Assembly: GCA_965261345.1 (NCBI GenBank)
Contig: OZ253449.1
Location: 1,280,001 to 1,344,000, forward strand
DNA length: 64,000 bases
Direction: 5' to 3'
From: Chloroflexota bacterium
GTDB lineage: Bacteria; Chloroflexota; UBA11872; VXNJ01
Under the pieces are notes generated by a model, which saw only the letters and a list, made by a program, of their open reading frames with translations, did no database searches and had not been told where the DNA came from. Both the position numbers and the translations under genes were made by a program. Each line of letters opens with the position of its first letter. The first letter of the stretch is position 1. Shown in pieces: positions 19,575-64,000 of this stretch.

Positions 19575-21326
19575 GGACGTGTCCCACGGTGTGGTGTAAC
19601 TAAGCCGTCCTCTACGTTTAGGGGTTCGGCAGCTGCAACTCTACAGAGTTGCAGCTGCCGGCAGGGCCGGCAGATGGTTGCTGGGGCTTGCTGGGGGAGT
19701 TTCGAGTCCTTGGCTGTGACGGCGACTGCCGGTAAGGCGTCCATCATTTTGCCAGTTGCGACCATGGCGCGGTCGTGGTCATATGGGCTTCCATGGGTCC
19801 GAAGGCCGGCCCCGGCCCGTAACGGCTCGCATTCGGGCTCACCGGGCCGGGTTTGTTGGGAAAGTCGGCCCAATTCGACGCTAGTGATCCTTATTTAGGC
19901 CCAGCTAGCGCCAAGCCGGGCGCACGACCTTCCATTTCCCTGGAGGGCGCTACGGCCCCCGGCGGCGGTTGCTACCCCGCCGGCAATGCCAGCGGGGACT
20001 GCCTCTCTCCCGGAGATGGGGGTTGGCCGATTAAGGCCATCGAGTGCCTGGACATATAGCGGCGCTCGGATGCGAGCCATTCGTCGTTCTGCTCAATTAG
20101 GACCGCTCCGATAAGGCGCAGGACCGAGTCATCGTCGGGGAAGAGCTGTACTACCCGGGTGCGGCGCTTTAGCTCGCCCATAACGCGCTCTAGGGGATTG
20201 GTGGACCAGATCTTGCGCCAGTGCGAAGGCGGGAAGGCGGTGTAGGCAGTCAGGGCGATCTCGGAGTCCTCGAGGATCGTGGACAGTTCCGGATACTTGC
20301 GCTCTAAGCGATCGGCGAAATCTCCGAAGGCGTCCATGGCGCTCTGCTTGTCAGCCTGCCCAAACAGCGACGCCAGTCCGGCTGCCACCAGCCCGCGGTC
20401 GCCGCTTCTGACCCTTGGTAGAAGATTGCGCCCAAAGTGTGTCCTGCACGTCTGCCAGGCGGCCTCGGGAATAAGCTTTGTCACCGCGTTGCCGATGGCT
20501 TGGTTCCCATCGGAGATCACCAGCCGCACGCCGGATAGACCGCGCGTTACCAGGGAGGCGAGCAAGTCCTCCCCGAAGCCCTGCGCTTCGCTGTGGCCGA
20601 TTGCAAGCCCCAGCAGCTCGCGATGGCCGTTCTCGTTTACGGCCATTGCTATGCCCACCGCCCGCGACCTTACCGCATGCGCGTTTCGGGCTTTTACGTA
20701 GGTGGCGTCGAGATAGAGGTACGGGAAGGTCGTATGCGAGAGATCGCGTTCGCGGAAGGCATTGACCAGCTCGTCGATGCCTTTGCAGATCCTTGACACC
20801 TCGGACCTGGAGATCCCGGCGTTTACTCCCATCGCCTCCACCAGCTTGTCGACCTTGCGGGTGGAGACGCCCTTGCTGTAGGCGGTCATGATGACGCCGT
20901 AGAGGGCCTGGTCGATGCGGCGCCGCCGCTCCAAGAACTCGGGGTAGTAGCTGCCTTGGCGCAGCTTGGGCAGGGCAATCTCGATGTCGCCCGCCCGGGT
21001 GGAGAGGGTGCGCTTGCGCGAGCCGCCAAAGCCGATTGCGACGCTCGCCGTTGCGCTCGTGCGGTTGGGCGCCGATGTTTTCGGCCAGGCCGGCGTCAAT
21101 AAGTTCCTGGTAGGCGTGCCGTACGGCGCTGCGGACGAATTCGCTGCTGTCAAACCCTTGCTTGGCGATAAGGGCAAGCAAGGTCTGATAATCAAGTTGG
21201 GCCATCGATGGTTCCTCGACGAAGTAAGTGAAGTGACTCCGTAGAGGTTTACACGATGGCCCTTTGTCATCGCGTTGGCTTAGTTGATCAAGCTGGTGCT
21301 CTTACACCACTCTAGGGGACGTGATC
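19575..21326 (-). mobile_element. IS256-family element, copy 1 (transposase with internal frameshift)
   Basis: 25-bp imperfect terminal IRs; YLYLDATY, VISDG, WQTCRTHF, STNPLER motifs; near-identical to 45209-46960; no matching target duplication. Confidence 0.92.
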
Positions 21327-43538: not shown

Positions 43539-44236
43539 GTGGAATATCGTCCTGGCTCGCTTGTCTCGGCCCGCGGCCGCAACTGGGTCGTCCTGCCACC
43601 AGAAGTTCGCGATGTAGTTCGGCTACGGTCGCTTGACGGGCTGGCGGGCGATGAAATCGGCATCCTGCCGGACCTGGAACCCGGTGCTGTAGCCAGCGCG
43701 AGGTTTCCCTACCCGGATCCTGATCGAACTGTCGATTCGGCAGGCCTCCGTCTCCTATTTGGCGCCGCCCGCCTGCAACTGCGCAGCGGTGCCGGCCCTT
43801 TTCGCTGCATGGGCCGGATCTCGGTTACGCCGCGCCCATACCAGCTTGTTCCCTTGCTGATGGCGCTGCGCCTCGATCCAGTGCAGTTGCTAATTGCCGA
43901 CGACGTCGGAGTCGGCAAAACGATCGAGGCCGGTCTGATCGCGCGCGAGTTATTGGAGCGTGGCCAAATAAGTCGAATCAGGGTCCTCTGCACTCTTCAT
44001 TTGCTTGACCATTGGGAGAGCGAACTATCCGAGAAGTTTGGAATTGACCTTGCGGTAGTTTCCTCCGCGCAGATGGCCCGCTTGGAACGCGAACTCCCCC
44101 GCCCCGACGTGAGCGTGTTTGCCTACCATCGGCACCTCGTCGCCAGCATTGGATTTGGTCAAATCCGACCGCTACCGTGGCTTCTTCCTCCAGTACGTGC
44201 CCGACCTTGTCATCGTGGATGAAGCTCACACCGCCC
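43539..44236 (+). pseudogene. SNF2-family helicase N-terminal fragment (DrmD-like), frameshifted and truncated
   Basis: PRPYQLVPL, LLIADDVGVGKTIEAG; VIVDEAH appears in a shifted frame just before the IS junction. Confidence 0.82.
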
Positions 44237-45159: not shown

Positions 45160-47232
45160 TTCGTCCACCCATGTGCGCCGATTGCGATACTCTCCGTCAG
45201 CAATCGTGGATCACGTCCCCTGGAGTGGTGTAAGAGCACCAGCTTGATCAACTAAGCCAACGCGATGACAAAGGGCCATCGTGTAAACCTCTACGGAGTC
45301 ACTTCACTTACTTCGTCGAGGAACCATCGATGGCCCAACTTGATTATCAGACCTTGCTTGCCCTTATCGCCAAGCAAGGGTTTGACAGCAGCGAATTCGT
45401 CCGCAGCGCCGTACGGCACGCCTACCAGGAACTTATTGACGCCGGCCTGGCCGAAAACATCGGCGCCAAACCGCACGAGCGCAACGGCGAGCGTCGCAAT
45501 CGGCTTTGATGGCTCGCGCAAGCGCACCCTCTCCACCCGGGCGGGCGACATCGAGATTGCCCTGCCCAAGCTGCGCCAAGGCAGCTACTACCCCGAGTTC
45601 TTGGAGCGGCGGCGCCGCATCGACCAGGCCCTCTACGGCGTCATCATGACCGCCTACAGCAAGGGCGTCTCCACCCGCAAGGTCGACAAGCTGGTGGAGG
45701 CGATGGGAGTAAACGCCGGGATCTCCAGGTCCGAGGTGTCAAGGATCTGCAAAGGCATCGACGAGCTGGTCAATGCCTTCCGCGAACGCGATCTCGCGCA
45801 TACGACCTTCCCGTACCTCTATCTCGACGCCACCTACGTAAAAGCCCGAAACGCGCATGCGGTAAGGTCGCGGGCGGTGGGCATAGCAATGGCCATAAAC
45901 GAGGACGGCCATCGCGAGCTGCTGGGGCTTGCAATCGGCCACAGCGAAGCGCAGGGCTTCTGGGAGGACTTGATCGCCTCCCTGGTAACGCGCGGTCTAT
46001 CCGGCGTGCGGCTGGTGATCTCCGATGGGAACCAAGCCATCGGCAACGCGGTGACAAAGCTTATTCCCGAGGCCGCCTGGCAGACGTGCAGGACACACTT
46101 TGGGCGCAATCTTCTGCCAAGGGTCAGAAGCGGCGACCGCGGGCTGGTGGCAGCCGGACTGGCGTCGCTGTTTGGGCAGGCTGACAAGCAGAGCGCCATG
46201 GACGCCTTCGGAGATTTCGCCGATCGCTTAGAGCGCAAGTATCCGGAACTGTCCACGATCCTCGAGGACTCCGAGATCGCCCTGACTGCCTACACCGCCT
46301 TCCCGCCTTCGCACTGGCGCAAGATCTGGTCCACCAATCCCCTGGAGCGCGTTATGGGCGAGCTAAAGCGCCGCACCCGGGTAGTGCAGCTCTTCCCCGA
46401 CGATGACTCGGTCCTGCGCCTTATCGGAGCGGTCCTAATTGAGCAGAACGACGAATGGCTCGCATCCGAGCGCCGCTATATGTCCAGGCACTCGATGGCC
46501 TTAATCGGCCAACCCCCATCTCCGGGAGAGAGGCAGTCCCCGCTGGCATTGCCGGCGGGGTAGCAACCGCCGCCGGGGGCCGTAGCGCCCTCCAGGGAAA
46601 TGGAAGGTCGTGCGCCCGGCTGGGCGCTAGCTGGGCCTAAATAAGGATCACTAGCGTCGAATTGGGCCGACTTTCCCAACAAACCCGGCCCGGTGAGCCC
46701 GAATGCGAGCCGTTACGGGCCGGGGCCGGCCTTCGGACCCATGGAAGCCCATATGACCACGACCGCGCCATGGTCGCAACTGGCAAAATGATGGACGCCT
46801 TACCGGCAGTCGCCGTCACAGCCAAGGACTCGAAACTCCCCCAGCAAGCCCCAGCAACCATCTGCCGGCCCTGCCGGCAGCTGCAACTCTGTAGAGTTGC
46901 AGCTGCCGAACCCCTAAACGTAGAGGACGGCTTAGTTACACCACACCGTGGGACACGTCCCAATCGTGCGGTTTCGAGCCGATGTTTTCCGCCCAGGCCG
47001 GCGTCATAAGTTCCAGGTAGGCGTGCTGTACGGCGCTCCAGACGAATTCGCTGGTGTTAAAACCTTGCTTGGCGACAAGGGCGACCGAGGTTTGATAATC
47101 GCGTTGGATCATCGATGGTTCCTCGACGAAGTAAGTGAGGGAACTCCATAGAGGTTTCACGATGGCCCTTTGTGATCGCGTTGGTTTAGCTGATCAAGCT
47201 GGCGCTCTTTCGTCACTCCAGGGAACGTGATC
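45160..47232 (-). pseudogene. Diverged IS256 left-end relic, split by IS256 copy 2
   Basis: The flanks 45160-45208 and 46969-47232 join into a sequence similar to 21030-21326. Confidence 0.75.
45209..46960 (+). mobile_element. IS256-family element, copy 2
   Basis: Terminal IRs; 8-bp target duplication CAATCGTG (45201-45208, 46961-46968); transposase 45330-46563 with a +1 frameshift near 45505. Confidence 0.93.
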
Positions 47233-47536: not shown

Positions 47537-48478
47537 GTGAAACACGGGGCATTCGATTTGTATTTGGATGAGCTACACAGCCTTATCGGCACTCTCAAAG
47601 ACCGAATGTCGCAACACCGCGTCTTGTTGGGCAAGAACGAATCCGCAACGCGCTACTCGTTGATTGATCCACTACTCGGAGCGTTGGGCTGGGACTTATC
47701 CGATCCGACGCAGGTGGAACCTGAGTATCAAGCAGGACCTGGGCGCGCTGACTACGCTTTGATGGTCGATGGCGGAACTCCCAGCATCATCGTCGAGGCA
47801 AAAAATTTGGGTCGGCGCGTCGATGACGGTATCAGCCAATCAATCAGCTATTGCATTGAACGCGGGATCAAATACTTCGTTGTCACTAACGGTGACAGAT
47901 GGGAGGTTTACGAGACGCACAATCCGGTTCCAATTGCAGAAAAACTGGTTGTTGAATTCAGTGTTAGGAACGCGTCCCAGGGCACGATCATGAAAATGCT
48001 CTGGCTTTGGCGCGGAAATTTCAAATCCGACACACCGGCAGTCACAAACGTGCCGCAAAATAAACTCGCTGAACGTGGGCAGGCAGTTGCGACCAAACGA
48101 ATTCGTCAGAAATCAGTTCCTTTGGATCAATTCACTCCCTCAATTGGTCAAAAAGAGCCGAATTCAATACTTTTTCCAGATGGATCGAGTACGGCGCCCG
48201 GCACATGGATCGAGTTTCAAACGGCCATCGTAAGTTGGTTGATTGAAACAGGACACCTGTCCGCATCAGATTGTCCGATTACAGCCGGGGGCAAGGCCTA
48301 CTTAGTTCATTCACAACCAGTAACGCGATCGGGCGCTCGTTTTCGGAGGCCAAGATCTGTTAATGACTTGTGGATTGAGGCTAATCGAAGCGCGTCAGAT
48401 CATGTTAAAACCGCCAAGCGAGTTTTGGAAGATAGAGGCGTAACACTCCAGAGCGTTCGTGTGGTGGCGACCGATTGA
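47537..48478 (+). CDS. Type I restriction HsdR N-terminal-like nuclease domain protein
   Basis: NESATRYSLIDPLLGALGWD, RADYAL, IVEAKNL, VVTNGDRW. Confidence 0.75.
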   Translation: MKHGAFDLYLDELHSLIGTLKDRMSQHRVLLGKNESATRYSLIDPLLGALGWDLSDPTQVEPEYQAGPGRADYALMVDGGTPSIIVEAKNLGRRVDDGISQSISYCIERGIKYFVVTNGDRWEVYETHNPVPIAEKLVVEFSVRNASQGTIMKMLWLWRGNFKSDTPAVTNVPQNKLAERGQAVATKRIRQKSVPLDQFTPSIGQKEPNSILFPDGSSTAPGTWIEFQTAIVSWLIETGHLSASDCPITAGGKAYLVHSQPVTRSGARFRRPRSVNDLWIEANRSASDHVKTAKRVLEDRGVTLQSVRVVATD

Positions 48479-48684
48479 CGCCGATGTTCTTCGCGAATGT
48501 TGGCGGATCAACAACCGCCAATCTGGCCACGGAAAATTTATCGCATTAGTCCGCACCGGGTAAGTGCGAACATATCGCCTTCAGCAATTTGATCCATACC
48601 GACATCGAGCGTTAGCAGCTCAGGATCAACGACCACAACACTAAATCGCACTAATTGCCAGGAAAACTGAGGGATCCCATCTCC

Positions 48685-51600
48685 ATGACAGCGCTCAATT
48701 CCGAACCGCGTCGGCATGATTTTGCAGAGGTATTAGCCGAATTGAGGAGCGTTGCGCGGTCCAAAATGGCCAGGGGCAGGCTGTTTGAGCGCTTAATGTG
48801 CGAGTACTTGCGGAAAGACCCAATTTGGGGTCCACGATTTGCGTCGGTGCAGTTGATTGACGGCAAAGACTTTGGAGTTGACCTAGAGGCGATATCCGCC
48901 GACGGCAAATCGGTTTGGGCAATTCAGTGCAAATTTCACGGGCCAAGCACACGAATTAATAAGAAGGCGGTTTCCAGCTTTTTAGCGGAGCTGGGTAAAA
49001 CCAAGTACACGCACGGCCTAATCATTGACACCGGTGCCGAATGGGGTGCGACCGCCTCCAGGGCAATACGCGGACTCGATAAACCAGTTCACTTGCTCAA
49101 ATTCCTCGATTTAGAGGGTAGTGATGTCGATTGGCCCGATTTGGCTGGCGACCTTAAGGACTTGCAGGTAAGGCGAGGCAGTTACGAATTGCGGCCCCAC
49201 CAAAAAAGCGCAATCGAGGACGTATTACTGGGGCTTAGTAAATCCGGCCGTGGCAAGTTGATCATGGCATGTGGGACAGGGAAAACCCTGACCGCGTTAC
49301 GGCTGGCCGAAGAGTACGTTGGTCAGGGCAACACGTGCCTCTACTTGGTCCCTTCGATCGCGTTAATGCAACAAACTTTGCGCGAGTGGGCCAGCCAACA
49401 GAGGATTCCACAAAGCTATGTTGGCATTTGTTCTGATGTGCGCGCTGGGCGCATTGCCGAAGATATCGATCTCTTTGAACTTGAGCTCCCCGTCACGACT
49501 GATCCGCGCCAGATTAGGTCGGTTCTCAAGTCCGACCCAGGGGGCCAATTGCGCGTAGTTTTTTGCACGTACCAAAGCATCGAATTAGTTATCGAAGCGC
49601 AGCGTGATGAGTGCGTAAAAGAATTCGACTTGATCATTTGTGACGAGGCTCACAGAACTACTGGGGTGGAAAAACCGGGCGACAAACAATCACCATTCGT
49701 TCGTGTACACGACGATTCAATGGTCAGGGGGAGGAAGCGGCTCTACATGACCGCGACGCCGCGCCTCTATGCTTCCTCGTCAAAAAAGAGGGCAAACGAC
49801 CAAAACTTCGACATTTATTCCATGGACGATGAAGCTACATACGGGCCGGAATTTCACCGATTGGACTTTGGTGAAGCGGTAAACAAAGGCTTATTGACTG
49901 ACTACAAGGTGCTTGTACTTCACATGCACCAGCGTTACGCTGCGCGGTTGTTGGCAAAAACGTTGGACAAGCATGCTGATGGCCCCGGTGTCGGGAGCAA
50001 AACGTTGAGCGAATTGATGACGGTAGATGATGCCGCAAGGATTGCCGGTTGCTGGACGGGATTGCTAGATCCAGAATTGGCCGCTCCGGCCGCCGAATAT
50101 AAGCATTTGCCAAGTCCGAAATTAAAAAGGGCTATCGCATTCAGCAGCAGGATTAATGCATCGAAACTGATCGAGTCAAGTTTTGAAGTCGTCGCCAACA
50201 CGATTACTCCAGATCGTGTTGGCCAGATGCAGGTGAAACATGTAGATGGCACCAACAACGCGCTGAATCGCAGCAGAGATATAGCTTGGCTGCGCCACGG
50301 TGATGAATCTTCTTGCCGAATGTTGACCAACGCGCGCTGTTTGTCCGAGGGAATTGATGTTCCGGCGCTGGACGCCGTCCTGTTTATGAATCCGCGGCGT
50401 TCACATATTGATATTGTCCAAGCCGTCGGGCGTGTCATGCGAAAAAGCCCCGGCAAGCAATACGGATACATCATTTTGCCGGTAATCGTCGGTGCCAGAT
50501 CAAATGTTGGCGAAATGATGTTGCATTCAGACTATGACGTGGTATGGGATGTACTACGCGCGTTGCGATCCCACGACGGTCGTCTCGACATTGAAATAAA
50601 TCAAATTGACTTGAACAATAAGCTCCCAGACCGGATCTCATTTGTCGGATTGGACGTAGGGGAGGATGATGAATTCGTCGTTGAGCCACTTGTAACCAAA
50701 AACGCGACTCAACTCGAATTGGGATTGTTGCCAGAGGCTATGTACGCGGCAATCGTAGACAAGGTTGGGGATCGCCAATATTGGGACCGCTGGGCACGCG
50801 ACATCGGAGAAATTGCGAGTCGCTGCACGGCCAGAATTCGAGCTTTGCGAGAAGGGAATTCGGAAATCGCTACCGAGTTTTCTGACTTTCACAATGGCAT
50901 CAAATCGATTACCAATGACTCGGTCCAGGCAAGTGAAGTCGAATCCATGCTCGCGCAGCATCTCATCACTAGGCCCGTATTCGAAGCGCTGTTTGCTGAG
51001 AGCAAATTTGTCGAAGAGAACCCGGTATCAAAGGCGATGCAGCGGATGGTTGAAATTCTGCAGCGCCGCGGATTGGATGCGGAGATTGAGAAGTTCCAAA
51101 GTTTCTACGACAGCGTTAGGAATCGCGTTTTTGGAGTAAGCGACGCTGCAGGAAAACAGGTAGTCCTGAAAGAGCTGTACGAAAAATTCTTCAAGACTGC
51201 GTTTGCGCAAACGACCGATCGACTCGGAATCGTATATACACCTAACGAAATTGTCGATTTCATACTCCGATCAGCAGACGACATTGTGCGTGAGCAATTT
51301 GGCGCTTCCGGGTTGTCCGCGGATGGTGTCCACGTGCTAGAGCCATTTGCCGGCACCGGAACTTTCCTTGTCAATCTGATCCAAGATAAGTCGTTGCTCG
51401 GCGAATCTGACGTGGCCAGAAAATTTGATCGCGAGTTACACGCAAACGAGATATTGCCCCTTGCGTACTACATTGGCGCGTTGAATATCGAGCGAGCCTT
51501 CCAAGGCCGGTGCCCTGGAATCGACTACAGATCATTCACCGGCATGGTGTTAGCGGATACGTTCAATCTCAGTGAAGGCGCAAGATCTCAGCGCCAGTTT

Positions 51601-53457
51601 CCACGCAAGTACTTTGGCGAAAACAACGAAAGAGCTGAATCTCAAGAGAATGAAGATATTCGGGTTTTTCTGTCGAATCCGCCGTGGTCGGCTTGGCAAT
51701 CCGATGCCCGTGACGAAAACCGGAACGTTAGCTACCCAGCTCTAGACGCCCGGATCAGAGAGACTTATGTCGCCAACAGCAACGCAACTCAACGCGCTAG
51801 CCTGTACGACTCTTACATTCGGGCCATTCGCTGGGCCTCCGACCGAATGGGCGATCGTGGACTGATCGCATTCGTCACGAACAACGGTTGGCTCGACGGG
51901 AGGGCAGCAGCCGGATTGCGGCATTGCCTGGCCAGTGAATTTAATGAGATTTATGTCTTAGACCTGCGGGGCAACGCAAGAACTAGGGGATTGTTTCGTC
52001 AAAAGGAGGGAGGAGGCGTATTCGACCAAGGATCGCGCGCCGGAGTATGCATCGTAATTCTTATTAGGTCTAATCCGGTCAACGGTCATGCCAAGGCTCG
52101 CATCAATTACCAAGCGGTTGACGACTACCTGACGACTGCCCAAAAGCTTGCGGCGGTCGAGGTTGCAGCGTCAATCAATGGAATTGACAAATGGCAGGAG
52201 ATTCACCCCGACGACCACGGCGATTGGCTAAACCAGCGTGACCCGCGATTCTTAGCATACGTGCCGATTGGTAGCAAAGCGGCCAAGCGTAGGTTGGCGA
52301 GTCGATCAGTCTTTCGACTTTTTGGCCGCGGTTTGGCGACCAGCCGCGACGAATACGCATACAGCTTCGATGAAGAAGCGCTGGCAGCACGTTCTATAAG
52401 AATGATTATGTTCTACAACCAGTTTTTGGGCGCGGAGGCGCCCCCGGCAAACGACGAATTGATCAAGTGGCACCACGACGTTCTCTCAAATGCCTCCCGG
52501 AAGATTCCTGCCCGATGGGAGAGTGACTCAATCCGAACTGTTGCCTACCGACCGTTCGTCAATCAATTTGCTCATTTCGACATTATTTTTAACGCGCGTC
52601 ACTACCAACTCGGAGCGATGTATCCAACGGCATCAACCATAAACAGAGTTATATCTGTAACCGGCAAAGCTAGCGGTGCAGGATTCAGCGCACTCGTGTC
52701 CAATTTATTACCGGATTTGCACGTTTTGGGTGCGACGCAAGTTTTCCCACGTTGGAGGTTTGAAAGGAGACAGCTCGGTGTTGGCACCTTGCCGCTGGAC
52801 GCAGGGACAACTGATACTGCCGATGGCAACGGCGAATTCGTCCGAATCGACAACATCACTGATTGGGCGTTGAGCGAGTTTCGACTCAAATATGGCGATT
52901 CGTCGATATCCAAAGACGACATTTTTTCGTATGTCTACGGGATCCTCCATCACCCTGTCTTCCGCGAGAGGTTCGCCAACGACTTGTTCAAGGATCTTCC
53001 GCGCATTCCGTTTGCGCCCGACTTCCGCGCGTTTTCAGAAGCCGGGATGAAACTTGAAGCGCTGCACTGTGACTATGAGTCCCTTAGCGGGTACCCATTA
53101 AAGATTGAGACTGCAAGTGGGTTTGATCCAGGGTCTGACTCCCACTTCTCGATTGAGAAGATGACTTGGGAGAAGGGGGCAGGCAAAAGGAAATTGCGGA
53201 TTAACGATTACTTGACAGTTTCCGGAATACCTGACTCAGCCCACGAGTACGTAGTGAACGGCCGCTCTCCGCTGGAGTGGCTGGTCGAGCGCTGGTGTTT
53301 GAAATTGCACGAACGATCCGGGATCGTCAACGATCCGAATCGGTGGTTCGACGATCCCCGTAGCGTCGTCAAGCTGGTCAAGCAAGCAACCCAAGTCGCC
53401 GTCGAATCAGTCAAATTGATCAACGAGCTCCCGGATCAATTCGACTTAGGGAGCTAG
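48685..53457 (+). CDS. Type ISP restriction-modification enzyme (Mrr-like nuclease, SF2 helicase, N6-adenine MTase, target recognition domain), ~1590 aa
   Basis: GVDL..IQCK; MACGTGKT, DEAHR, MTATPR, QAVGRVMRK; GIVYTP, EPFAGTGTF, NPPW; DLRGNAR; LlaGI/LlaBIII domain order. Confidence 0.95.
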   Translation: MTALNSEPRRHDFAEVLAELRSVARSKMARGRLFERLMCEYLRKDPIWGPRFASVQLIDGKDFGVDLEAISADGKSVWAIQCKFHGPSTRINKKAVSSFLAELGKTKYTHGLIIDTGAEWGATASRAIRGLDKPVHLLKFLDLEGSDVDWPDLAGDLKDLQVRRGSYELRPHQKSAIEDVLLGLSKSGRGKLIMACGTGKTLTALRLAEEYVGQGNTCLYLVPSIALMQQTLREWASQQRIPQSYVGICSDVRAGRIAEDIDLFELELPVTTDPRQIRSVLKSDPGGQLRVVFCTYQSIELVIEAQRDECVKEFDLIICDEAHRTTGVEKPGDKQSPFVRVHDDSMVRGRKRLYMTATPRLYASSSKKRANDQNFDIYSMDDEATYGPEFHRLDFGEAVNKGLLTDYKVLVLHMHQRYAARLLAKTLDKHADGPGVGSKTLSELMTVDDAARIAGCWTGLLDPELAAPAAEYKHLPSPKLKRAIAFSSRINASKLIESSFEVVANTITPDRVGQMQVKHVDGTNNALNRSRDIAWLRHGDESSCRMLTNARCLSEGIDVPALDAVLFMNPRRSHIDIVQAVGRVMRKSPGKQYGYIILPVIVGARSNVGEMMLHSDYDVVWDVLRALRSHDGRLDIEINQIDLNNKLPDRISFVGLDVGEDDEFVVEPLVTKNATQLELGLLPEAMYAAIVDKVGDRQYWDRWARDIGEIASRCTARIRALREGNSEIATEFSDFHNGIKSITNDSVQASEVESMLAQHLITRPVFEALFAESKFVEENPVSKAMQRMVEILQRRGLDAEIEKFQSFYDSVRNRVFGVSDAAGKQVVLKELYEKFFKTAFAQTTDRLGIVYTPNEIVDFILRSADDIVREQFGASGLSADGVHVLEPFAGTGTFLVNLIQDKSLLGESDVARKFDRELHANEILPLAYYIGALNIERAFQGRCPGIDYRSFTGMVLADTFNLSEGARSQRQFPRKYFGENNERAESQENEDIRVFLSNPPWSAWQSDARDENRNVSYPALDARIRETYVANSNATQRASLYDSYIRAIRWASDRMGDRGLIAFVTNNGWLDGRAAAGLRHCLASEFNEIYVLDLRGNARTRGLFRQKEGGGVFDQGSRAGVCIVILIRSNPVNGHAKARINYQAVDDYLTTAQKLAAVEVAASINGIDKWQEIHPDDHGDWLNQRDPRFLAYVPIGSKAAKRRLASRSVFRLFGRGLATSRDEYAYSFDEEALAARSIRMIMFYNQFLGAEAPPANDELIKWHHDVLSNASRKIPARWESDSIRTVAYRPFVNQFAHFDIIFNARHYQLGAMYPTASTINRVISVTGKASGAGFSALVSNLLPDLHVLGATQVFPRWRFERRQLGVGTLPLDAGTTDTADGNGEFVRIDNITDWALSEFRLKYGDSSISKDDIFSYVYGILHHPVFRERFANDLFKDLPRIPFAPDFRAFSEAGMKLEALHCDYESLSGYPLKIETASGFDPGSDSHFSIEKMTWEKGAGKRKLRINDYLTVSGIPDSAHEYVVNGRSPLEWLVERWCLKLHERSGIVNDPNRWFDDPRSVVKLVKQATQVAVESVKLINELPDQFDLGS

Positions 53458-56211
53458 GAATTGCAAGCGCGAATTGGAGCCGACCCAATCTGACAGATGA
53501 AATCCACCTTCATTGAGCCCAGCATCAAGACTCGAGTTAAATTTTTTTGACAATTTACGCGTCCAAGCGCGCATGTTACGAGTAAAGGCAACGTTTTTGC
53601 GGCAACCGGGGCGCATTCAAGCCGCCGCAACGCTAATGATGGAAGATTTCGCCACCCGGCTCTGGCCGGCTCCCCCTCATTGGTACCAGAGGGAATGTGA
53701 ATAATCTGGTTCCAACGAAAGGGGACTGCAATGGCGAAGCGAAAGTACTCGCCCGAACAGATCATCAACAAGCTCCGGGCCATAGAGCTTGGTGTCGCCC
53801 AGGGCGACACCGTCGAGCAGAGCTGCCGCAAGGCGGCGATCAACGTCCAGACCTATTACCGCTGGCGCTCCCGCTACGGCGGGATGACGCTCGCCGAGGC
53901 CAAGGAGAACAAGCGCCTGCGCGAGGAGAACAAGCGCTTAAAACACGCGGTGGCCGATCTAACGCTCGACAACCAGATCCTGAAAGAGACGGCCTCGGGA
54001 AACTTCTAAGCCCGGAGCGGCGGCGCAAGTGCGTCGACCACGTCCGGGCCAAGTTCCCGGTGTCTGAACGAAGAGCCTGCCGGGTGCTGGGCCAATCGCG
54101 CCGCACCCAGCGCTACATCCCAAAACCCGATCCGGAAGAGGACAACCTCACCGCCGAGATCAGGATGCTTTCCCTCAAGCACCCCCGCTATGGCTACAAG
54201 CGCATCACCGCCCTGCTTAAACACTCGGGCTGGAAACTGAACCGCAAACGGGTATTGCGCATCTGGCGCGCGCAGGGCCTTAAGGTCCCGATCCGAAAGG
54301 TCAAGAAGTCGCGCCTCTGGCTGGAGAACGGACGCTCTACGCGGCTTATGGCCGAGCGCCCGAATCACGTCTGGGCCTACGACTTTACCTACGAGCGCAC
54401 CGAGGACGGCAGACCACTGCGGATCCTTACCGTGGTCGATGAGTTCACCCGCGTGGCCTTAGCGGCCCGGGCGGCCCGATCCTTCCCTGCCCGGGACGTG
54501 ATCGAGACAATCGCCGACCTCATGCTCATCCACGGGGTCCCCGAGCACATCCGCTCTGACAACGGCCCCGAATTTACCGCCAAAGCGATAAGGCAATGGC
54601 TATCTGGCAACAGCGTCAAGACCGTCTACATAAAGCCCGGAGCGCCCTGGGAGAACGCCTATGCGGAATCGTTCATATCCAAGCTCCGCGACGAGCTCCT
54701 GGACCGCGAGATATTCTTCACCCTCGAAGAAGCCAGGGTGATGCTGGAGCGCTTCCGGATCGACTACAACACCGTGCGCCCGCACTCGGCGCTCGGCTAC
54801 CTGGCGCCCCTGGAAGCGATCGAGGCGGCGGCGTGATGGATCAACTTCCGGTTGCAATCCGGCTGCTGCTGGCCGGCCTCATCGACGGCCCGGCGTCCGT
54901 CTTCGTGGGTGCTACGGGCGGCCGCAATATCAGCTTCGCCGCCAGCTCTCCTGCAGGAGAGCTGGCGGCACCCTCCCACAAGACAATGTCTCACCTGGTA
55001 CCAAAACCGGGGACCTGCCAGCTCGACGAGCGTGATGCAGGGTAGAGAGTGTTAGATGCCCTGAGTAGCCAACGAACCGCCGCAAATCCTACTTGGCACT
55101 GGTCGTTGGCGACGGTCTCCCAGAACATGGTCGATAGAGCGTCGTATAGCTGATCGCCTACAAGCCTTTAGAACTTTGTTCCGGTGATGACTATCAGGGT
55201 CATCAATCTCCTCCAGGCGACCGGACGGTGCTGCCAAAGCCCTACCCTACGCACCGCTTTTGCTGGCTATTAATTCGATTTACTCTTGATATTCAGCACG
55301 GTTCCAAACTCACTGCAATCGCGGAGTCGGTGGGCAAACTGGGGAGATTGAACCAAAATGGTGGGCGATTTACGCTTCGATAGTGCAGGAACCCAATGGA
55401 TTGGCACACTGTACGAGGACCATTTACGTTGGCAATGATTCCGGGTCTATTTCCGAGGTTTGACTAATAAGACTGGGAGTGCCTCGCCATCCTAGCTCCC
55501 TAAGTCGAATTGATCCGGGAGCTCGTTGATCAATTTGACTGATTCGACGGCGACTTGGGTTGCTTGCTTGACCAGCTTGACGACGCTACGGGGATCGTCG
55601 AACCACCGATTCGGATCGTTGACGATCCCGGATCGTTCGTGCAATTTCAAACACCAGCGCTCGACCAGCCACTCCAGCGGAGAGCGGCCGTTCACTACGT
55701 ACTCGTGGGCTGAGTCAGGTATTCCGGAAACTGTCAAGTAATCGTTAATCCGCAATTTCCTTTTGCCTGCCCCCTTCTCCCAAGTCATCTTCTCAATCGA
55801 GAAGTGGGAGTCAGACCCTGGATCAAACCCACTTGCAGTCTCAATCTTTAATGGGTACCCGCTAAGGGACTCATAGTCACAGTGCAGCGCTTCAAGTTTC
55901 ATCCCGGCTTCTGAAAACGCGCGGAAGTCGGGCGCAAACGGAATGCGCGGAAGATCCTTGAACAAGTCGTTGGCGAACCTCTCGCGGAAGACAGGGTGAT
56001 GGAGGATCCCGTAGACATACGAAAAAATGTCGTCTTTGGATATCGACGAATCGCCATATTTGAGTCGAAACTCGCTCAACGCCCAATCAGTGATGTTGTC
56101 GATTCGGACGAATTCGCCGTTGCCATCGGCAGTATCAGTTGTCCCTGCGTCCAGCGGCAAGGTGCCAACACCGAGCTGTCTCCTTTCAAACCTCCAACGT
56201 GGGAAAACTTG
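52738..56211. repeat. 722-bp inverted repeat (52738-53459 / 55490-56211)
   Basis: Reverse-complement comparison by eye; encoded C-terminal sequences are identical in the ORF track. Confidence 0.92.
53663..55020 (+). mobile_element. IS3-family element, apparently intact
   Basis: TG...CA IRs; target duplication GCTC (53659-53662, 55021-55024); orfA 53731-54009, GGGAAAC slippery site, orfB to 54836 with WAYDF, DEFTR, RSDNGPEF, NAYAESF. Confidence 0.95.
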
Positions 56212-57013
56212 GCAATGGTGAACGACCTCCAAATCTGGAACCATTTTTGACGCGAACGCGGAGAAGGCACGAGTTCCGCCGCCTCTACCCTGAATAGATA
56301 TAACTCTGTTTATGGTTGATGCCGTTGGATACATCGCTCCGAGTTGGTAGTGTTCGCCGTTAAATAGTGGATCAAAGTGGACGTCTTGCCTGACAAAGGG
56401 TCGGTGGAGCGCATGTCGAAGTGAGGCGCCAGGTTCAAAAGAAGCTTCCATGCCCCTCCTGACATTTGACAACGATTTCCGGTGCCACTTGATCAGTTCG
56501 TCGTTCGCCGGGGGCGCCTCCGCGCCCAAAAACTGGTTGTAGAACATAATCATTCTTATAGAACGTGCTGCCAGCGCTTCTTCATCGAAGCTGTATGCGT
56601 ATTCGTCGCGGCTGGTTTTCAGTCCGCCGCCGTACAACCCAAAGATTGCTTGTTCAGCAAAGGCGCCCTTGTTCCTTGGATCACCAATAGCCGAATAGGT
56701 TTGAAATCGCAGGTCACGCTGGTTTAGCCAATCGCCATGGTCGTCGGGGTGAATCTCCTGCCATTTGTCAATTCCATTGATTGACGCTGCAACCTCGACC
56801 GCCGCAAGCTTTTGGGCAGTCGTCAGGTAGTCGTCAACCGCTCGGTAATTGATGCGAGCCTTGGCATGACCGTTGACCGGATTAGACCTAATAAGAATTA
56901 CGATGCATACTCCGGCACGAGAAGATTGCCCGAACACCTTCCCGCCTTCGCGTTTCCACGTTTCGCCGGAAGTCCTCGCGTTTCCTCTCAAGTCATAGAT
57001 ATAAATCTCATTA
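55490..57013 (-). other. Silent inverted alternative 3' cassette (MTase C-terminus plus TRD) of the Type ISP gene
   Basis: Open ~500 codons; no ATG at its 5' boundary and an in-frame TAA 12 codons upstream; mosaic of blocks near-identical to 52039-53459 and divergent patches. Confidence 0.9.
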
Positions 57014-57171: not shown

Positions 57172-58050
57172 TCAATCGTTGTGCGATTGAGCGCGCACGA
57201 ATTGCTCAGCCAACTTACATTGCCCGATGTCCAGGATGACCATGCCCAATTGCATTTGGCTATGCCCTCCTTCGATCTGGGCCAAGATGGGCGTTCCTTC
57301 GAAAGAATCAAAATCTCCGACATATTCCTTGAAGACCTCGACGCTCGCTGCCAAGTCAGGAACATCTTCTTCCAACAACGCGGTTGCGATTCGAGTTAAG
57401 CATTCCATTCCAACGTGGATTTGCTCCGCTAGGTCTATATCGGTTTGCAGACCTTCAATCTCCTCGCGAAGCTTCGCCCATTCTTTGTACTCTTTGAGGA
57501 GCCGCTCCGGCGATTCACCCAGGAAGACACTGCCAACTACCTCGTCTTCATCACCGAGCCCGGAATTCACTACTACGCGCGATAGCGGCGGGCCGACGTG
57601 CTGTATGTAATTCCTGAATTTGTATAGAAATCGGTAAGCAAAGTAGTCGTCGAATTCTGCGCTGCATGCGGCTTCCCAGGTAGTCAACCGGTCTCCGCCG
57701 TCGCGGTCGTCGCGTCGTTTGAGATCGGTGGCTGCGTGATCCAGAAACATTCGCATGCTGGTCAGGAAATTGACAATCGCTGTTGTCAATTGAGAGGTCA
57801 ATAGCGGGAATTCAGATTGCTGAACGGATTGTTGACTAGAAGCCCTAGTTACAAGACTCGTTTCCAAATTGACAAACGTCCGGTAGTTTTCAGCCAGCAC
57901 TGCAAACGCGACTCGTCTGAATACTCTCCAAATGCAACTGTTTGCTTCCGCCAATCGCTCACGTTCGCCGGTCGAAAGACTTCGAACCTGTTTGATTCCG
58001 ATTTGGTCGCCCTCTTGAGAGACCATGTCCGCGACTATGTATTGGACCAA
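57172..58050 (-). CDS. Hypothetical protein with HEPN-like RxxxxH motif
   Basis: Helical; IVNFLTSMRMFLDH and FLYKFRNYIQH. Confidence 0.6.
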   Translation of the reverse strand: MVQYIVADMVSQEGDQIGIKQVRSLSTGERERLAEANSCIWRVFRRVAFAVLAENYRTFVNLETSLVTRASSQQSVQQSEFPLLTSQLTTAIVNFLTSMRMFLDHAATDLKRRDDRDGGDRLTTWEAACSAEFDDYFAYRFLYKFRNYIQHVGPPLSRVVVNSGLGDEDEVVGSVFLGESPERLLKEYKEWAKLREEIEGLQTDIDLAEQIHVGMECLTRIATALLEEDVPDLAASVEVFKEYVGDFDSFEGTPILAQIEGGHSQMQLGMVILDIGQCKLAEQFVRAQSHND

Positions 58051-58061
58051 TGCGCGACCTC

Positions 58062-59078
58062 CTATTCGACCAATGATTCATATGCCGATAACCTGTTGAT
58101 CGACAGACGCGTTTCAAATCCTTTTTCCGAGTCGAACTCCAAATGACTGCCATGGGAAATTCCAATCCCCGAGAATTCACTCCCATCCAATACCCGGAAA
58201 GTGGAGAGCATTTTCGTGTACCACAATTCGAAATGTTCAAGAATCGTGATCTGGAATCCATCGGGCAAATCACCCTCAAATGGCCGGGTTTCGCACCCAG
58301 CGACTATTCTTGCATCGATTTCGTGACCCCAAATCGCAATGGAAATCATCGAGCACACGCACGCTGTTACCAATTGATTGAGCCCCAGCAATGGCTTAGG
58401 AGCTGTTGACCTCGCGGCGTTGAGGTTGTTCGAAACGCGTTGGTACCAACCTTCCAGGGTTTCCCCGTCAAGAGGTTGCCTTTGCCGGAAGAATTCGTTC
58501 TTCACGCTCAAAAGCTCGCTGACAGAATTGTCGTCCTGTGCCGAAGCGCATTCGGACGCAGATTTCCAAGATTGAGTTTGCTCAATAGCGGATTTAATCG
58601 GGGCGATCGCGTTTGCAAGCTGGCGCGGCATCCTACGGGCCCGATTTGATATCGCATCGCGTGAATCCGGATATGCGGGACAAAGAGGAATAGGGATGTT
58701 GTCTCGGTCAACAAAAGCTCGCGCGATTTCGGGTCGTTGACCTTCCCAGAACGTGGCGATGATCTCGGAAGTGGAATTCAACGACGTTGGTAGCACACTA
58801 AACAAATTCCGATCATTCGTGGTAATCGTGGCATTGCTCCACTTCTCGTCGTCCAGCTGCGCTAAGTACAACGCATTTGCGTGCCGCACGATGTCCGGGC
58901 CGGCCGCGATCCTTGAATCGTATTCGCGCAACGCTGTCTGTTCACCGGCCGCGGCATTACGTTTAAGTGCACCCCGAATCCTCTGTCCGAAGGCGCTAAC
59001 GCGGATGTCGCTTGCGGCCTGCGCGACCGAGCTTTCCAATTCGGAAGGAGGCGACGCATAAGAAGGATCTGAAGTCAT
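58062..59078 (-). CDS. Hypothetical protein (338 aa)
   Basis: Long ORF with AAGGT RBS-like sequence; 11 bp from the next gene; no family recognised. Confidence 0.6.
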   Translation of the reverse strand: MTSDPSYASPPSELESSVAQAASDIRVSAFGQRIRGALKRNAAAGEQTALREYDSRIAAGPDIVRHANALYLAQLDDEKWSNATITTNDRNLFSVLPTSLNSTSEIIATFWEGQRPEIARAFVDRDNIPIPLCPAYPDSRDAISNRARRMPRQLANAIAPIKSAIEQTQSWKSASECASAQDDNSVSELLSVKNEFFRQRQPLDGETLEGWYQRVSNNLNAARSTAPKPLLGLNQLVTACVCSMISIAIWGHEIDARIVAGCETRPFEGDLPDGFQITILEHFELWYTKMLSTFRVLDGSEFSGIGISHGSHLEFDSEKGFETRLSINRLSAYESLVE

Positions 59079-59752: not shown

Positions 59753-61702
59753 CTAGCTGGTGAGCGGCTGAGTCGAAAGAATCTGGGCGCACACGTAGTG
59801 TCTGAATGATTCGACATCAGTGTAGAACCGGAATCCGGCCTGACTGGCGATGCTCTCGATCTCAGGGTCCTCGTCGATCAGTAGCGCGACCGGCTGGCTA
59901 TAGCCCTCCTGCAGGCCATTGGGCCAAGCAAGATCGAGCACCGCCAGCAGTTCCCCGGTCTCTCCGTCAACCAATTGATATAGCAATTCGCCTTCGGGTA
60001 AACCTTGGTCAATTACCCAGATATTGGTATCCAACAGCGCTTTTTCTTCATCCTCTTCTTGGATTGCCCCCAAGGAGATTTCTACCCGGTCCAATACGGA
60101 TCCGATTGACTTGGATTCAGGGACTTTGCCCTGCCACAGTTCGTCGAGGAACAGATTTGCGGCCGAGGCGAGCAATTCGCGCCGCGCCGCGAGAAATTGA
60201 CGGTAATTTTCAATCTTCCAAAGTTCCGGGTCCATCGGAATCCAATGTGATTCCATGACACCGGGGTGCTTTGCGGCAAATTCGGGGATGTACTCTGCCG
60301 GGTTCCGATTCGAGACCTTGAGATTGGTGTCCTGGGTGAGGAATGTGAAATTGGCCAGCGCGTTGACTTCCGGGCGCTCGTACCCGAACTTGTACAGGAG
60401 TGATTTGGGGAATATGTGGTGTAGTTGCAGGCTACTTAAACTGCCCAGAATGTGGCTGGACAATTCGAAATCCGTATCCCAATCCCGGGACCGGTTGACC
60501 CTGGTAAGCATGTAGAGCAGCGGATAGAAACGCGACCCGCGACTCCAAGTGGCAAAGTCATTTGGAGTGAGCTTGAGATCGCCACGATTCCGGCGCAAAC
60601 CCGCGATCAATTGTTCTAATCCCTCGCCCGCTCCTTCGATCGCTGCCAAGTCTTGGTTGAGAACCGATTCAGTCGACCCTGAATAGCGTCCCCACAGCAG
60701 TGTGTGGACGTACCAGTACAAAAGCTGGTCGCGTTCGGCCGGGTCAGAAATCGTCCCGCCTCGGTCTTCAAGGTACCTAACCATGAGCGCAAACGAATAG
60801 ACGCTCCCCAAAACCCGGTCATGATCGAGCCCAAGTCGCGACGAAATCGCGTTAAGCAGATAATCTATACGTTTTTCTGCTAGGTTCAATCCATTTTGGA
60901 AATCGCCAGGCCGCACGTTGGCGAGCGCCAGAAATAGCGCTTCGCCGGTCACCAAGCTATTGACGCACCGGAGTAGCCATTCGAGCTTGAAATTGAATCC
61001 GGCCGCCCGCCAGCGATCCAGCCGGGCAATCATTTCACGTCGAGCATCCGGCCAGGCAGCGCAGATCTTGGCCAGCGCGAGATCACCCTTCGACAGCTTT
61101 GTCCCGCCGCTGTTTACGCGGTTGAAAATTTCCACAACGACGTCGACGGTTTTGTCCTCGCCAGTAATCTCCTCGACCAATAAATTAACTTCTCTTGTCG
61201 TGGCAATCCGAGAAAGTCGGTCGTTGTAAATCTCGAAATTGTCCCGCAGCTCCGCGTCATTAAATATCCGGATCATGAACGGCCCGATCCCCTTCTTCAT
61301 GACTTCGGTAACGCTGACCCAACATGGATCCTGGTCCATCCTCATCGGCGCATAAAACTCAAACGCTTCAGTGCGCATGTTGAAGTACAAGCCGGTAAAC
61401 GTTTCGACCTTGCCCTCGAAGAATGGTGGCGCCTGACCACGGAGGATTCCATAGAGTGACGTGATTCGCTGCTGGCCATCCAGGAGCAATGTAACGAAGC
61501 CCGGCTGAAGCGTCTTGTCGCCTCGTGTGTCGACCGCTTCAGTTTTGGCAAGCCATGTCAGCAAGCTACCAACGGGGTGCCGTCGATAAAGCGAATCCAT
61601 CAGCCCCCTCACTTGGTCCCGGTTCCATACGTATCCGCGCTGGAATACAGGGAGTGCCATGGCCCCGGTGTCGATATGGTTGAGAACTGTTTCGATCTTC
61701 AA
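59753..61702 (-). CDS. GmrSD-like protein (DUF262 plus HNH-type C-terminal domain), putative modification-dependent restriction enzyme
   Basis: LPVFQRGYVW, LLDGQQRITSL, IFNRVNSGGTKL, LHHIFP, NALANFTFLTQDTN. Confidence 0.85.
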   Translation of the reverse strand: MKIETVLNHIDTGAMALPVFQRGYVWNRDQVRGLMDSLYRRHPVGSLLTWLAKTEAVDTRGDKTLQPGFVTLLLDGQQRITSLYGILRGQAPPFFEGKVETFTGLYFNMRTEAFEFYAPMRMDQDPCWVSVTEVMKKGIGPFMIRIFNDAELRDNFEIYNDRLSRIATTREVNLLVEEITGEDKTVDVVVEIFNRVNSGGTKLSKGDLALAKICAAWPDARREMIARLDRWRAAGFNFKLEWLLRCVNSLVTGEALFLALANVRPGDFQNGLNLAEKRIDYLLNAISSRLGLDHDRVLGSVYSFALMVRYLEDRGGTISDPAERDQLLYWYVHTLLWGRYSGSTESVLNQDLAAIEGAGEGLEQLIAGLRRNRGDLKLTPNDFATWSRGSRFYPLLYMLTRVNRSRDWDTDFELSSHILGSLSSLQLHHIFPKSLLYKFGYERPEVNALANFTFLTQDTNLKVSNRNPAEYIPEFAAKHPGVMESHWIPMDPELWKIENYRQFLAARRELLASAANLFLDELWQGKVPESKSIGSVLDRVEISLGAIQEEDEEKALLDTNIWVIDQGLPEGELLYQLVDGETGELLAVLDLAWPNGLQEGYSQPVALLIDEDPEIESIASQAGFRFYTDVESFRHYVCAQILSTQPLTS

Positions 61703-62792: not shown

Positions 62793-64000
62793 CTAGAAAC
62801 CAGGCCGAAAAGCCCAAAACGCGCGTCGGGGCTCAAACAGATTAGCAATGACCTCGAAGACCTCCCTGAGGCCGCCAAACCGATTTAGGACACTCTGGAT
62901 CGATATTTCGTGGGAATTCTGGGCCCATGCAACGATCGCGCCGGCGGCAACCGCATTTTTAAGACCCCGCGCCAAATCCCGATTCGCAGGTCCTTCCATT
63001 ACCGGCGCAGAAGCTACTTCCCGGCCTTCGGCGACCCCGTTCCGATTGCCCTCCATCGCCATCTGCGCCGCCTCCCGGCCGTTTGCGGCGGCCGCGGTCA
63101 GCCCGGCTTCCCGGCCCGGGTCGGTTCCCGAGGGTTTCCTTTTCCACGACTCCCCTTCGGCAAGCGTTAGGTTGGCCACCGTGGCCGCCATCAGCAGCTG
63201 GAACCCGGCAAGTTGCCTGCCAAAGAACCGCGACTGGCGCACGCCCAGCTGGCAGAGCCTGGCCAGGCGGTGCTCGACGCGGGTTCTAAGGCGCGCGATC
63301 TTTAAGCCTTCCTTACTGCGCTGGCGGATGCGGGCCTGCTGCAGCAGGCGTTCCTGGGGATGGACGCTGATGCGGCGGTTGGGTTTGGTCGCAGAGCGTA
63401 TGCAGGATCTCTTGAGCGGACAGGCCGAGCACTGCTCTTTAGCGAAGTGGAAGAGGCCGGCGCGTGTCTTGGCGCTGCGCCGGGAGCGCGAGCGGCGGTA
63501 ATCGGAAGTTATCTGCCCGGCCGGGCAGGTGCAGGTTCCCTTTTCCAGATCGATGGCAAAGTCCTGCTTTACAAAGTAGCGGCTGGCTGGTTTACCCGGC
63601 GCCCTGGCGAAGAGGTCGTACCCGGCGTCGGCGAAGTCCTTGCGGGTGTCGCCAGCCTCGTAGGCGCAGTCGCCGATGACGATCTCGACTTTGGCGGCGG
63701 CGTTCTCTTCGGCCTCCCGCACCAGCGCCAGGGCGCCGCAGTTGTCGGGGGCGTTGCCCGGGATCACGTCCACCGCGGTTACCAGGCCGGTTGACAAATC
63801 TACGGCGATGGCGGCCTTGTGGCCGGCAAAGCGGTTGGTCGAGCTCTTGCGTCCATGGCGCATCTGCGGATCGTGCGCCGATATGATCCGGTCGCGTCCG
63901 CCCCGGACGATCTCCACTTCCTCGCCATCTGCGCCGTCGGCCGAATCCCTGGCCGCGACACCCCTGTCTCTGACCGCCACCGGGGCGGGATCGACCTCGC
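62793..64000 (-). mobile_element. IS1182-family transposase (runs off the window)
   Basis: DRIISAHDPQMRHGRKS, GHKA, GDCAY, CTCPAG, CSACPLKRSC, RTRVEH. Confidence 0.85.

Follow-up and report, generated by a model that had tools for sequence, protein, structure and literature searches.

The locus described here lies in a 64,000-nt stretch of the genome of a Chloroflexota bacterium (assembly GCA_965261345.1, contig OZ253449.1, positions 1,280,001 to 1,344,000), referred to below as the window, and consists of a Type ISP restriction-modification gene accompanied by a silent, inverted copy of its DNA-recognition part. The gene occupies an open reading frame (ORF) of 1600 codons on the forward strand (48655-53457). 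The ORF itself opens at a TTG at 48655, while the probable start of the gene is the ATG at 48685, which corresponds to the first residue of a near-identical relative (P0004, discussed below). Pfam domains occur within the predicted protein in the order Mrr_cat_2, ResIII/DEAD, Helicase_C, ISP_coupler, N6_Mtase and Type_ISP_C (E 1.8e-84 for Type_ISP_C), which is the Type ISP succession of Mrr nuclease, SF2 helicase-like ATPase, coupler, gamma-class N6-adenine methyltransferase (MTase) and target recognition domain (TRD) in one polypeptide. LlaBIII (4xqk) is matched end to end (residues 21-1594, E 0), and LlaGI (5ffj) is likewise matched over its full length. Comparison of the translation with these alignments further reveals a DEAH-type helicase motif, an NPPY-type MTase motif that reads NPPW where LlaGI has NPPY, and the intercalating Arg and Phe of Loop III; equivalents of R1119, F1133 and R1138 are retained in the gene and in its inverted copy alike. 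Every sequence test identifies 48655-53457 as an intact Type ISP restriction-modification gene. Two copies of the ISP domain exist in the genome (2.39 Mb, one contig), both of them at this locus.

The second copy, termed the cassette here, reproduces the last ~506 codons of the gene and lies tail-to-tail with it on the reverse strand (55490-57013). An open frame extends from 57012 to a stop codon at 55492 and contains a 499-aa ORF running from a TTG at 56991 to 55492; in-frame stops lie just upstream, and the 5' edge is a sharp breakpoint. Pfam recognizes Type_ISP_C alone in the cassette (E 1.4e-79). A promoter scan found no promoter-like site upstream of it on the minus strand, and promoter and terminator scanning of the locus returned counts no higher than the shuffled expectation.

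Base-by-base alignment of both copies, from which the segment identities below are taken, resolves the duplicated part of the gene into near-identical scaffolds that alternate with divergent patches. Reading along the forward strand, these are I5 (51942-51984), the outermost homology (to 56971-57013; 34/43 identical, 79%, with the first 13 nt identical) and the sole block upstream of V1; patch V1 (51985-52038; 30/54 identical, 56%, to V1'); block A (52039-52250; 209/212 identical to 56705-56916); patch V2 (52251-52338; 48/88); block B (52339-52474; 134/136 identical to 56481-56616); patch V3 (52475-52599; 67/125); block C (52600-52656; 57/57 identical to 56296-56352); patch V4 (52657-52737; 40/81); and block D (52738-53459), a perfect inverted repeat with 55490-56211 (722/722) that contains the 'guide' part of the TRD, the stop codon and 2 nt beyond it. 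The corresponding parts of the cassette, all on the reverse strand, are D' (55490-56211), V4' (56212-56295), C' (56296-56352), V3' (56353-56480), B' (56481-56616), V2' (56617-56704), A' (56705-56916), V1' (56917-56970) and I5' (56971-57013). A repeat search, used to find the inverted repeats, returned the pairs 52738-53459/55490-56211 (722 nt, 100%), 52018-52272/56683-56937 (92%) and 52307-52474/56481-56648 (91%), as well as the weaker pairs 52527-52656/56296-56425 (76%) and 51942-51984/56971-57013 (43 nt, 79%). Identity between the copies is bimodal, with values of 98.5-100% in blocks A to D and of 49-56% in patches V1 to V4; the patches are in frame, both indels measure 3 nt, and the copies cease to be homologous 2 nt beyond the stop codon. 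Such a two-level pattern is not the uniform decay of a duplicate. An initial inspection of the letters of the window, the sequence-only reading, had described these coordinates, peptides, blocks and in-frame patches, together with a cassette that lacks an ATG at its 5' boundary, and each of these points is borne out by the repeat search, the alignment and the translations with their upstream stops.

The positions of the patches coincide with those parts of the enzyme that read DNA. In LlaGI and LlaBIII, the recognition elements described in PMC4872093 are Loops I, II and III of the MTase domain and Loops IV, V and VI of the TRD together with helix H. HMMER alignments to LlaGI 5ffj and LlaBIII 4xqk were set to the numbering of that paper (5ffj chain index + 164), with N1018, Y1021, T1055, S1056, R1115, R1119, F1133, R1138, N1228, R1286, N1327, R1329, H1368, G1372 and Q1373 as landmarks of the register. 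In this alignment V1 corresponds to Loop III (LlaGI 1115-1138), the end of V2 overlaps Loop IV (1223-1230), V3 begins at helix H (1286-1294) and reaches through the first half of Loop V (1324-1331), and the end of V4 falls on Loop VI (1365-1374), while Loops I and II belong to the gene body upstream, which is not duplicated. The proposal of the sequence-only reading that the patches are DNA-reading loops is therefore upheld by alignment to the elements given in PMC4872093. Consistent with this assignment, nine of the 12 base-reading positions named or predicted in that paper differ between the two copies, as against 75/506 positions overall (hypergeometric P=3.4e-6), and the three that are unchanged are the equivalents of 1118, 1228 and 1329.

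Specifically, the cassette carries K at 1131, K at 1226, R at 1286 and Glu at 1327, and the expressed copy carries Arg at 1125, Arg at 1327 and His at 1368. According to the residue-base ties described in PMC4872093, K1131 is associated with C:G at -1, K1226 with G:C at +4 and R1286 with G:C at +6, while R at 1327, like LlaBIII R1319, is associated with C:G at +6 and H1368, as in LlaGI, with G at +3. The head encoded by the cassette is accordingly predicted to favour C at -1 together with G at both +4 and +6, and the expressed head G at +3 together with C:G at +6. Since helix H and Loop V, the readers of +5/+6, share one patch, they would always travel together.

The two copies are separated by 2030 nt, made up of a left part of 203 nt (53460-53662), an IS3-family insertion sequence (IS; 53663-55020, forward strand, 1358 bp, with a 4-bp target duplication and Pfam matches to rve/rve_3/HTH_21), and a right part of 469 nt (55021-55489). 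Both flanking parts are unique in the genome, and the IS3-family element has several full-length copies elsewhere in it. The window or part of it was found in seven public runs from three studies, and Logan contigs, not reads, of four of these runs were aligned to it; near-identical DNA was sought in metagenome contigs of JGI with 0 matches. An empty IS site, in which 53658 is joined to 55021, occurs in contigs of three public runs (X2, X5 and X7); this element is accordingly a recent insertion, polymorphic, and does not belong to the design. These contigs also bear on the question of whether the arrangement is an assembly artefact, that is, whether the inverted repeat is spurious and results from the folding back of two variants of a single gene from different strains. 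The heterogeneity of the samples, in which occupied and empty spacers occur together and branch points appear at 51954 and 56984, speaks in favour of such an error. Against it, the same joint from 53658 to 55021 in X2, X5 and X7 means that contigs of independent public runs connect the end of D, the left spacer, the right spacer and the inverted start of D, and an X2 contig covering 56984-58500 ties the start of the cassette to the unique right flank. X2 may be the source sample of the genome, yet X7 represents a different strain type. An artefact is on this evidence largely refuted already, and we regard it as scarcely credible.

The same public runs contain patch sets that differ from those of the window. 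Contig 19 of X6 (1404 nt, depth 2) comprises 52429-52656 on the reverse strand followed by 55120-56295 on the forward strand, giving the order B-V3-C-V4'-D'-right spacer; its junction, between 52656 and 56295 on opposite strands, is the one that a crossover in block C would produce. In X6 contig 18 and X7 contig 30 (depth 7), the gene body at 51941/51954 is joined to 57013/57000 and reads body-V1'-A'-V2'. This body/V1' junction in all likelihood cannot be a repeat-induced chimera, because the 13 bases shared there are fewer than the assembler's word. Further X7 contigs match the window exactly in A-V2-B, B-V3 and C-V4-D and almost exactly in C'-V3'-B', and the D-spacer-D' joint is present; X7 therefore has two copies, with the gene body on V1'. 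Its V2 occupies either the silent position, in a reciprocal exchange relative to the window, or a co-existing subpopulation.

A third source is P0004, a protein of 1329 aa encoded on a 773-kb contig of another assembly. It is the product of the same gene apart from two substitutions in the body, among them R959K, the 51530 G>A change also seen in X6. Its order is body-V1'-A'-V2'-B-V3-C-V4, followed by a stop after a +1 frameshift within V4, and P0242 on the same contig carries on with the end of V4 and block D. Relative to the window there are thus three recombinant junctions (I5, B and C), all of them composed of just these two patch sets; a third allele was not seen. The listed X2 contigs match the window without difference outside the multi-copy IS. 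The end of one lies exactly at 51954 and the start of another at 56984, and these would be branch points of a 31-mer graph if V1 and V1' each followed the body. Patches have been exchanged between the two sets in nature.

Some observations on these runs were set aside. Gene conversion had been considered from the depths of X2 contigs (V1-A-V2 ~19, V3 ~9, V3'/B' ~20, V2'/A' ~6) and was rejected, as contig depth cannot rank parts of a gene. A one-copy reading of X6, drawn from absent cover of V1, V2, V3' and V4, was likewise rejected as holes at depth 2, and the absent right flank in X6 and X7 was counted as holes at depth 2 and not as evidence. Separately, one X6 contig (depth 3) skips 636 nt of the ISP gene body (50796-51433), which may represent an in-frame deletion variant or an artefact.

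On balance, and with modest confidence, we favour the interpretation that the cassette serves RecA-driven inversion, or acts as a gene-conversion reservoir, through which the recognition loops are re-assorted. The locus consists of an intact gene beside a promoterless, inverted spare of its DNA-reading part, from MTase Loop III to the stop codon, with I5, A, B, C and D as nested inverted repeats. The patches carry the reading elements for separate target positions: V1 (Loop III) to -1, V2 (Loop IV) to +4, V3 (helix H and Loop V) to +5/+6 and V4 (Loop VI) to +3. Homologous recombination of the RecA type between paired blocks would invert the DNA between them, such that the cassette patches distal to the crossover enter the expressed gene. 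A crossover in D would invert the spacer alone and be silent, one in C would swap V4, one in B would swap V3 and V4, and one in A would swap V2 to V4, while V1 could move through I5 alone (43 nt, 79%). Successive events or gene conversion could produce mixed sets, eight combinations readily and 16 if V1 moves too. As methylation and restriction would depend on the same reading head within one polypeptide, a new set would alter both activities together.

The genome encodes RecA, and the most likely engine is general homologous recombination acting on the inverted repeats, which measure 57-722 nt. Homologous recombination between short inverted repeats is possible but slow for the short blocks. 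We infer that exchange is intragenomic and recurrent, that RecA drives it, and that the chimeras are active with new specificities. The shuffling by inversion proposed in the sequence-only reading is supported by the chimeric patch sets of other samples, including the block C junction 52656/56295; it would further imply inversion within a clone and at a useful rate. The strongest form of the proposal, a recombinase-independent, loop-level shufflon in which four modules are re-assorted independently to give up to 16 working specificities from two alleles, we consider doubtful.

Several observations weigh against a switching role, and most of them suit an alternative in which the cassette is an evolutionary accident, namely the remnant of a second ISP allele, derived from duplication or acquired DNA and truncated by rearrangement in an IS-rich genome. 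Under this alternative, rare recombination or gene conversion, partly between strains, would have homogenised the scaffolds and produced the chimeras without any selection for switching. No tyrosine or serine recombinase is encoded near the locus, the two Phage_integrase and four Resolvase matches of the genome all lying more than 270 kb away, and IS elements in and around the locus make a chance rearrangement plausible, as does the sharp breakpoint at the 5' edge of the cassette. The layout is also rare. A second TRD copy was found at 0/80 ISP loci of other species (tblastn and self-blastn), and match tables, inspected by eye, contained no close opposite-strand match pairs in 97 other genomes of the class or in 400 other genomes of a phylum sample, 90 of them with a match (phylum counts that take in the unpublished genomes G228 and G403, one match each, which no other result uses); the layout is thus missing from 80/80 other loci and from ~500 related genomes. 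Among short TRD frames, 0/12 inspected had the layout, and truncated, TRD-only remnants do occur in other genomes (L096 and L097, below). The chimeras come from strains with other single-nucleotide polymorphisms, so that recombination between strains fits them as well as switching within a cell. The frameshift of P0004 in V4 may mean that the gene is decaying in one relative, or else reflects a homopolymer error of that assembly. X6 is at depth 2, and its contig may cross the 57-nt block C wrongly if other paths were unsampled; IS-occupied and empty spacers occur together in samples, and contigs drop rare variants and cannot phase them. Homology upstream of V1 amounts to just 13 identical bases, V1, V2 and V4 are not more variable than the scaffolds in family-wide entropy (98 homologues), and a switch would be expected to leave the chromosome unmethylated at its new sites.

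Despite these points, an accident without a switching role accounts poorly for several features, and we think it unlikely, if by no means negligible. The 506-codon frame is uninterrupted even though ~126 of its codons are highly divergent, and the homologous segment has trimmed limits, beginning immediately ahead of the first loop that can be swapped and finishing 2 nt beyond the stop codon. Differences between the copies are concentrated on base-reading residues (P=3e-6). Three block junctions are recombinant, with two patch sets used and no third allele seen, and the two-copy structure is retained in a second strain type, X7. A further alternative, that the 499-aa ORF (56991-55492, from TTG) is expressed by readthrough as a free recognition-domain protein which acts alone or competes with the enzyme, draws on the existence of that ORF, on two upstream ORFs that point in the same direction (58062-59078 and 57172-58050), and on the abundance of TRD-only proteins of 500-650 aa in databases. 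Its ORF, however, starts inside the MTase domain, at Loop III, with the rest of the fold missing, the minus strand upstream bears no promoter-like site, and the TRD-only frames that were inspected in other places turned out to be genes that are split, interrupted or truncated; we accordingly judge expression of a free protein to be very improbable. The rarity of the layout argues against a conserved, dedicated system, and is compatible with a young invention as well as with an accident that turned out to be workable.

Match tables also contained no close opposite-strand pairs (within 10 kb) in 40 other relatives, and the layout was not found on plasmids (220 records, 234 places), where the three-place record among 60 listed rows (H46) proved to be one gene in the fetched stretch. 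TRD-only database proteins of 500-650 aa were considered as cassettes and rejected, those that could be placed being split, interrupted or truncated genes. Two isolated TRD-only remnants (L096 on G278:C33 and L097 on G254:C181) cover roughly residues 1200-1592 and are accompanied by no other ISP homology in the fetched stretch. Two contigs of one Thiomargarita metagenome-assembled genome (L060 and L071) both end within the TRD at query residue 91; these may represent a second case of duplicated ISP heads, as an assembly would break in this way at a repeated TRD scaffold.

The surroundings of the gene suggest a foreign origin. The ISP domain is present in 0/6 genomes of the same genus and the locus lies in a stretch of low GC content (51-54% compared with about 60%), and from these two features we conclude that the locus is acquired DNA in a defence island. 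ORFs within 10 kb encode an HSDR_N-like protein, two proteins without a family, a GmrSD/HEC-05-like enzyme and IS transposases. A 313-aa ORF that immediately precedes the ISP gene (47537-48478, forward strand) has an HSDR_N-like stretch alone, resembling the N-terminus of a Type I R subunit. The 649-aa GmrSD_N/HEC-05-like protein (59753-61702, reverse strand), a candidate Type IV restriction enzyme, is encoded 2.7 kb from the cassette, and its gene and the ISP gene together mark a small defence island of lower GC content. Neither of the two reverse-strand ORFs that point toward the cassette, 57172-58050 and 58062-59078, could be assigned to a family in Pfam, NCBIfam or PADLOC; the product of the former resembles widespread 'hypothetical protein' clusters of the ESM Atlas (score 0.97), and the latter gave no usable match.

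Other features of the window reflect a genome rich in insertion sequences. ORFs of 432 aa lie at 19972-21270 (reverse strand) and 45265-46563 (forward strand), one of which is confirmed by Pfam as a Mutator-family transposase, and an end of ~400 nt adjoining 46560 recurs at least 10 times in the genome. A DDE_Tnp_1 transposase is also among the insertion sequences of the window, for which the listed element coordinates include 53663-55020 (forward strand) and 62793-63980 (reverse strand). A short ORF at 43539-44222 (forward strand) shows weak SNF2-related similarity that does not reach the Pfam cut-off (E 3e-4) and may be a gene fragment beside an IS.

The arrangement invites comparison with systems in which recombination diversifies a recognition gene. 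In Type I hsdS inversion systems, such as pneumococcal SpnD39III and the phase-variable Type I system of Bacteroides fragilis (PMC7672463, PMC7641763 and PMC7394358), an expressed specificity gene is likewise accompanied by silent, inverted partial copies, nested inverted repeats lie in conserved sequence, and recombination re-assorts recognition modules and thereby alters the target of methylation and restriction. Those systems differ in exchanging whole TRDs of a separate S subunit, usually by means of a dedicated invertase, whereas here four loops of one MTase-TRD head are concerned and no invertase is linked. The analogy to hsdS shufflons that the sequence-only reading had drawn therefore holds for how the locus would work and fails for family membership, as the shuffling concerns the C-terminal part of an ISP enzyme made as one chain and not a separate HsdS subunit with two TRDs beside HsdM and HsdR.

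Similar in architecture are the gene-altering programmed inversions reported for Cj0031-like Type IIG enzymes, BREX PglX and DISARM DrmMI, whose signature is a long gene with a short inverted pseudogene (Milman et al. 2023, PMC9881135). As at those loci, an inverted fragment of the 3' part of the gene lies nearby, the inverted repeats fall within coding sequence, and the target is a fused methyltransferase-recognition protein; the present long gene with its shorter inverted pseudogene fragment thus has the structural signature described in that paper. The published loci differ in that recombinases are enriched, though not obligatory, in their vicinity, and a loop-by-loop mosaic is not described in the main-text passages of the paper. 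The term 'ISP' has 0 occurrences in its main text, the supplementary tables lying outside this scope. With supplements again outside its scope, a literature search that included passages of PMC11741434 found no description of inversion or of a silent cassette for Type ISP enzymes. This agrees with the suggestion of the sequence-only reading that shuffling is undescribed for Type ISP, but inversions of other single-chain restriction-modification enzymes have been published (PMC9881135).

Two further comparisons are instructive. LlaGI and LlaBIII (PMC4872093, PMC3553950) share with the present enzyme their domain order and recognition elements, and they are near-identical to one another outside the reading head while recognizing different targets. 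Those alleles, however, reside on different plasmids, whereas here both heads occupy one chromosome, one of them silent and inverted. The gene conversion systems pilE/pilS and vlsE (PMC2632889, PMC13321361) resemble the locus in having a promoterless donor, a conserved framework and variable patches; they differ in that they concern surface antigens, non-reciprocal conversion and many cassettes, as opposed to a single inverted cassette for a DNA-recognition enzyme.

What sets the present locus apart is that the units exchanged are individual loops that read single target positions, and not whole domains. Engineering specificity is described as an unaccomplished challenge in PMC4872093, and the chimeras, if active, would provide natural swaps with which to test the partial Type ISP recognition code and to engineer specificity. 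Should the proposed switch prove true, it would mean that a defence island can operate a specificity switch by homologous recombination alone, with no invertase, and were the full loop-level shufflon to exist, nature itself would have demonstrated the modularity of the Type ISP recognition code.

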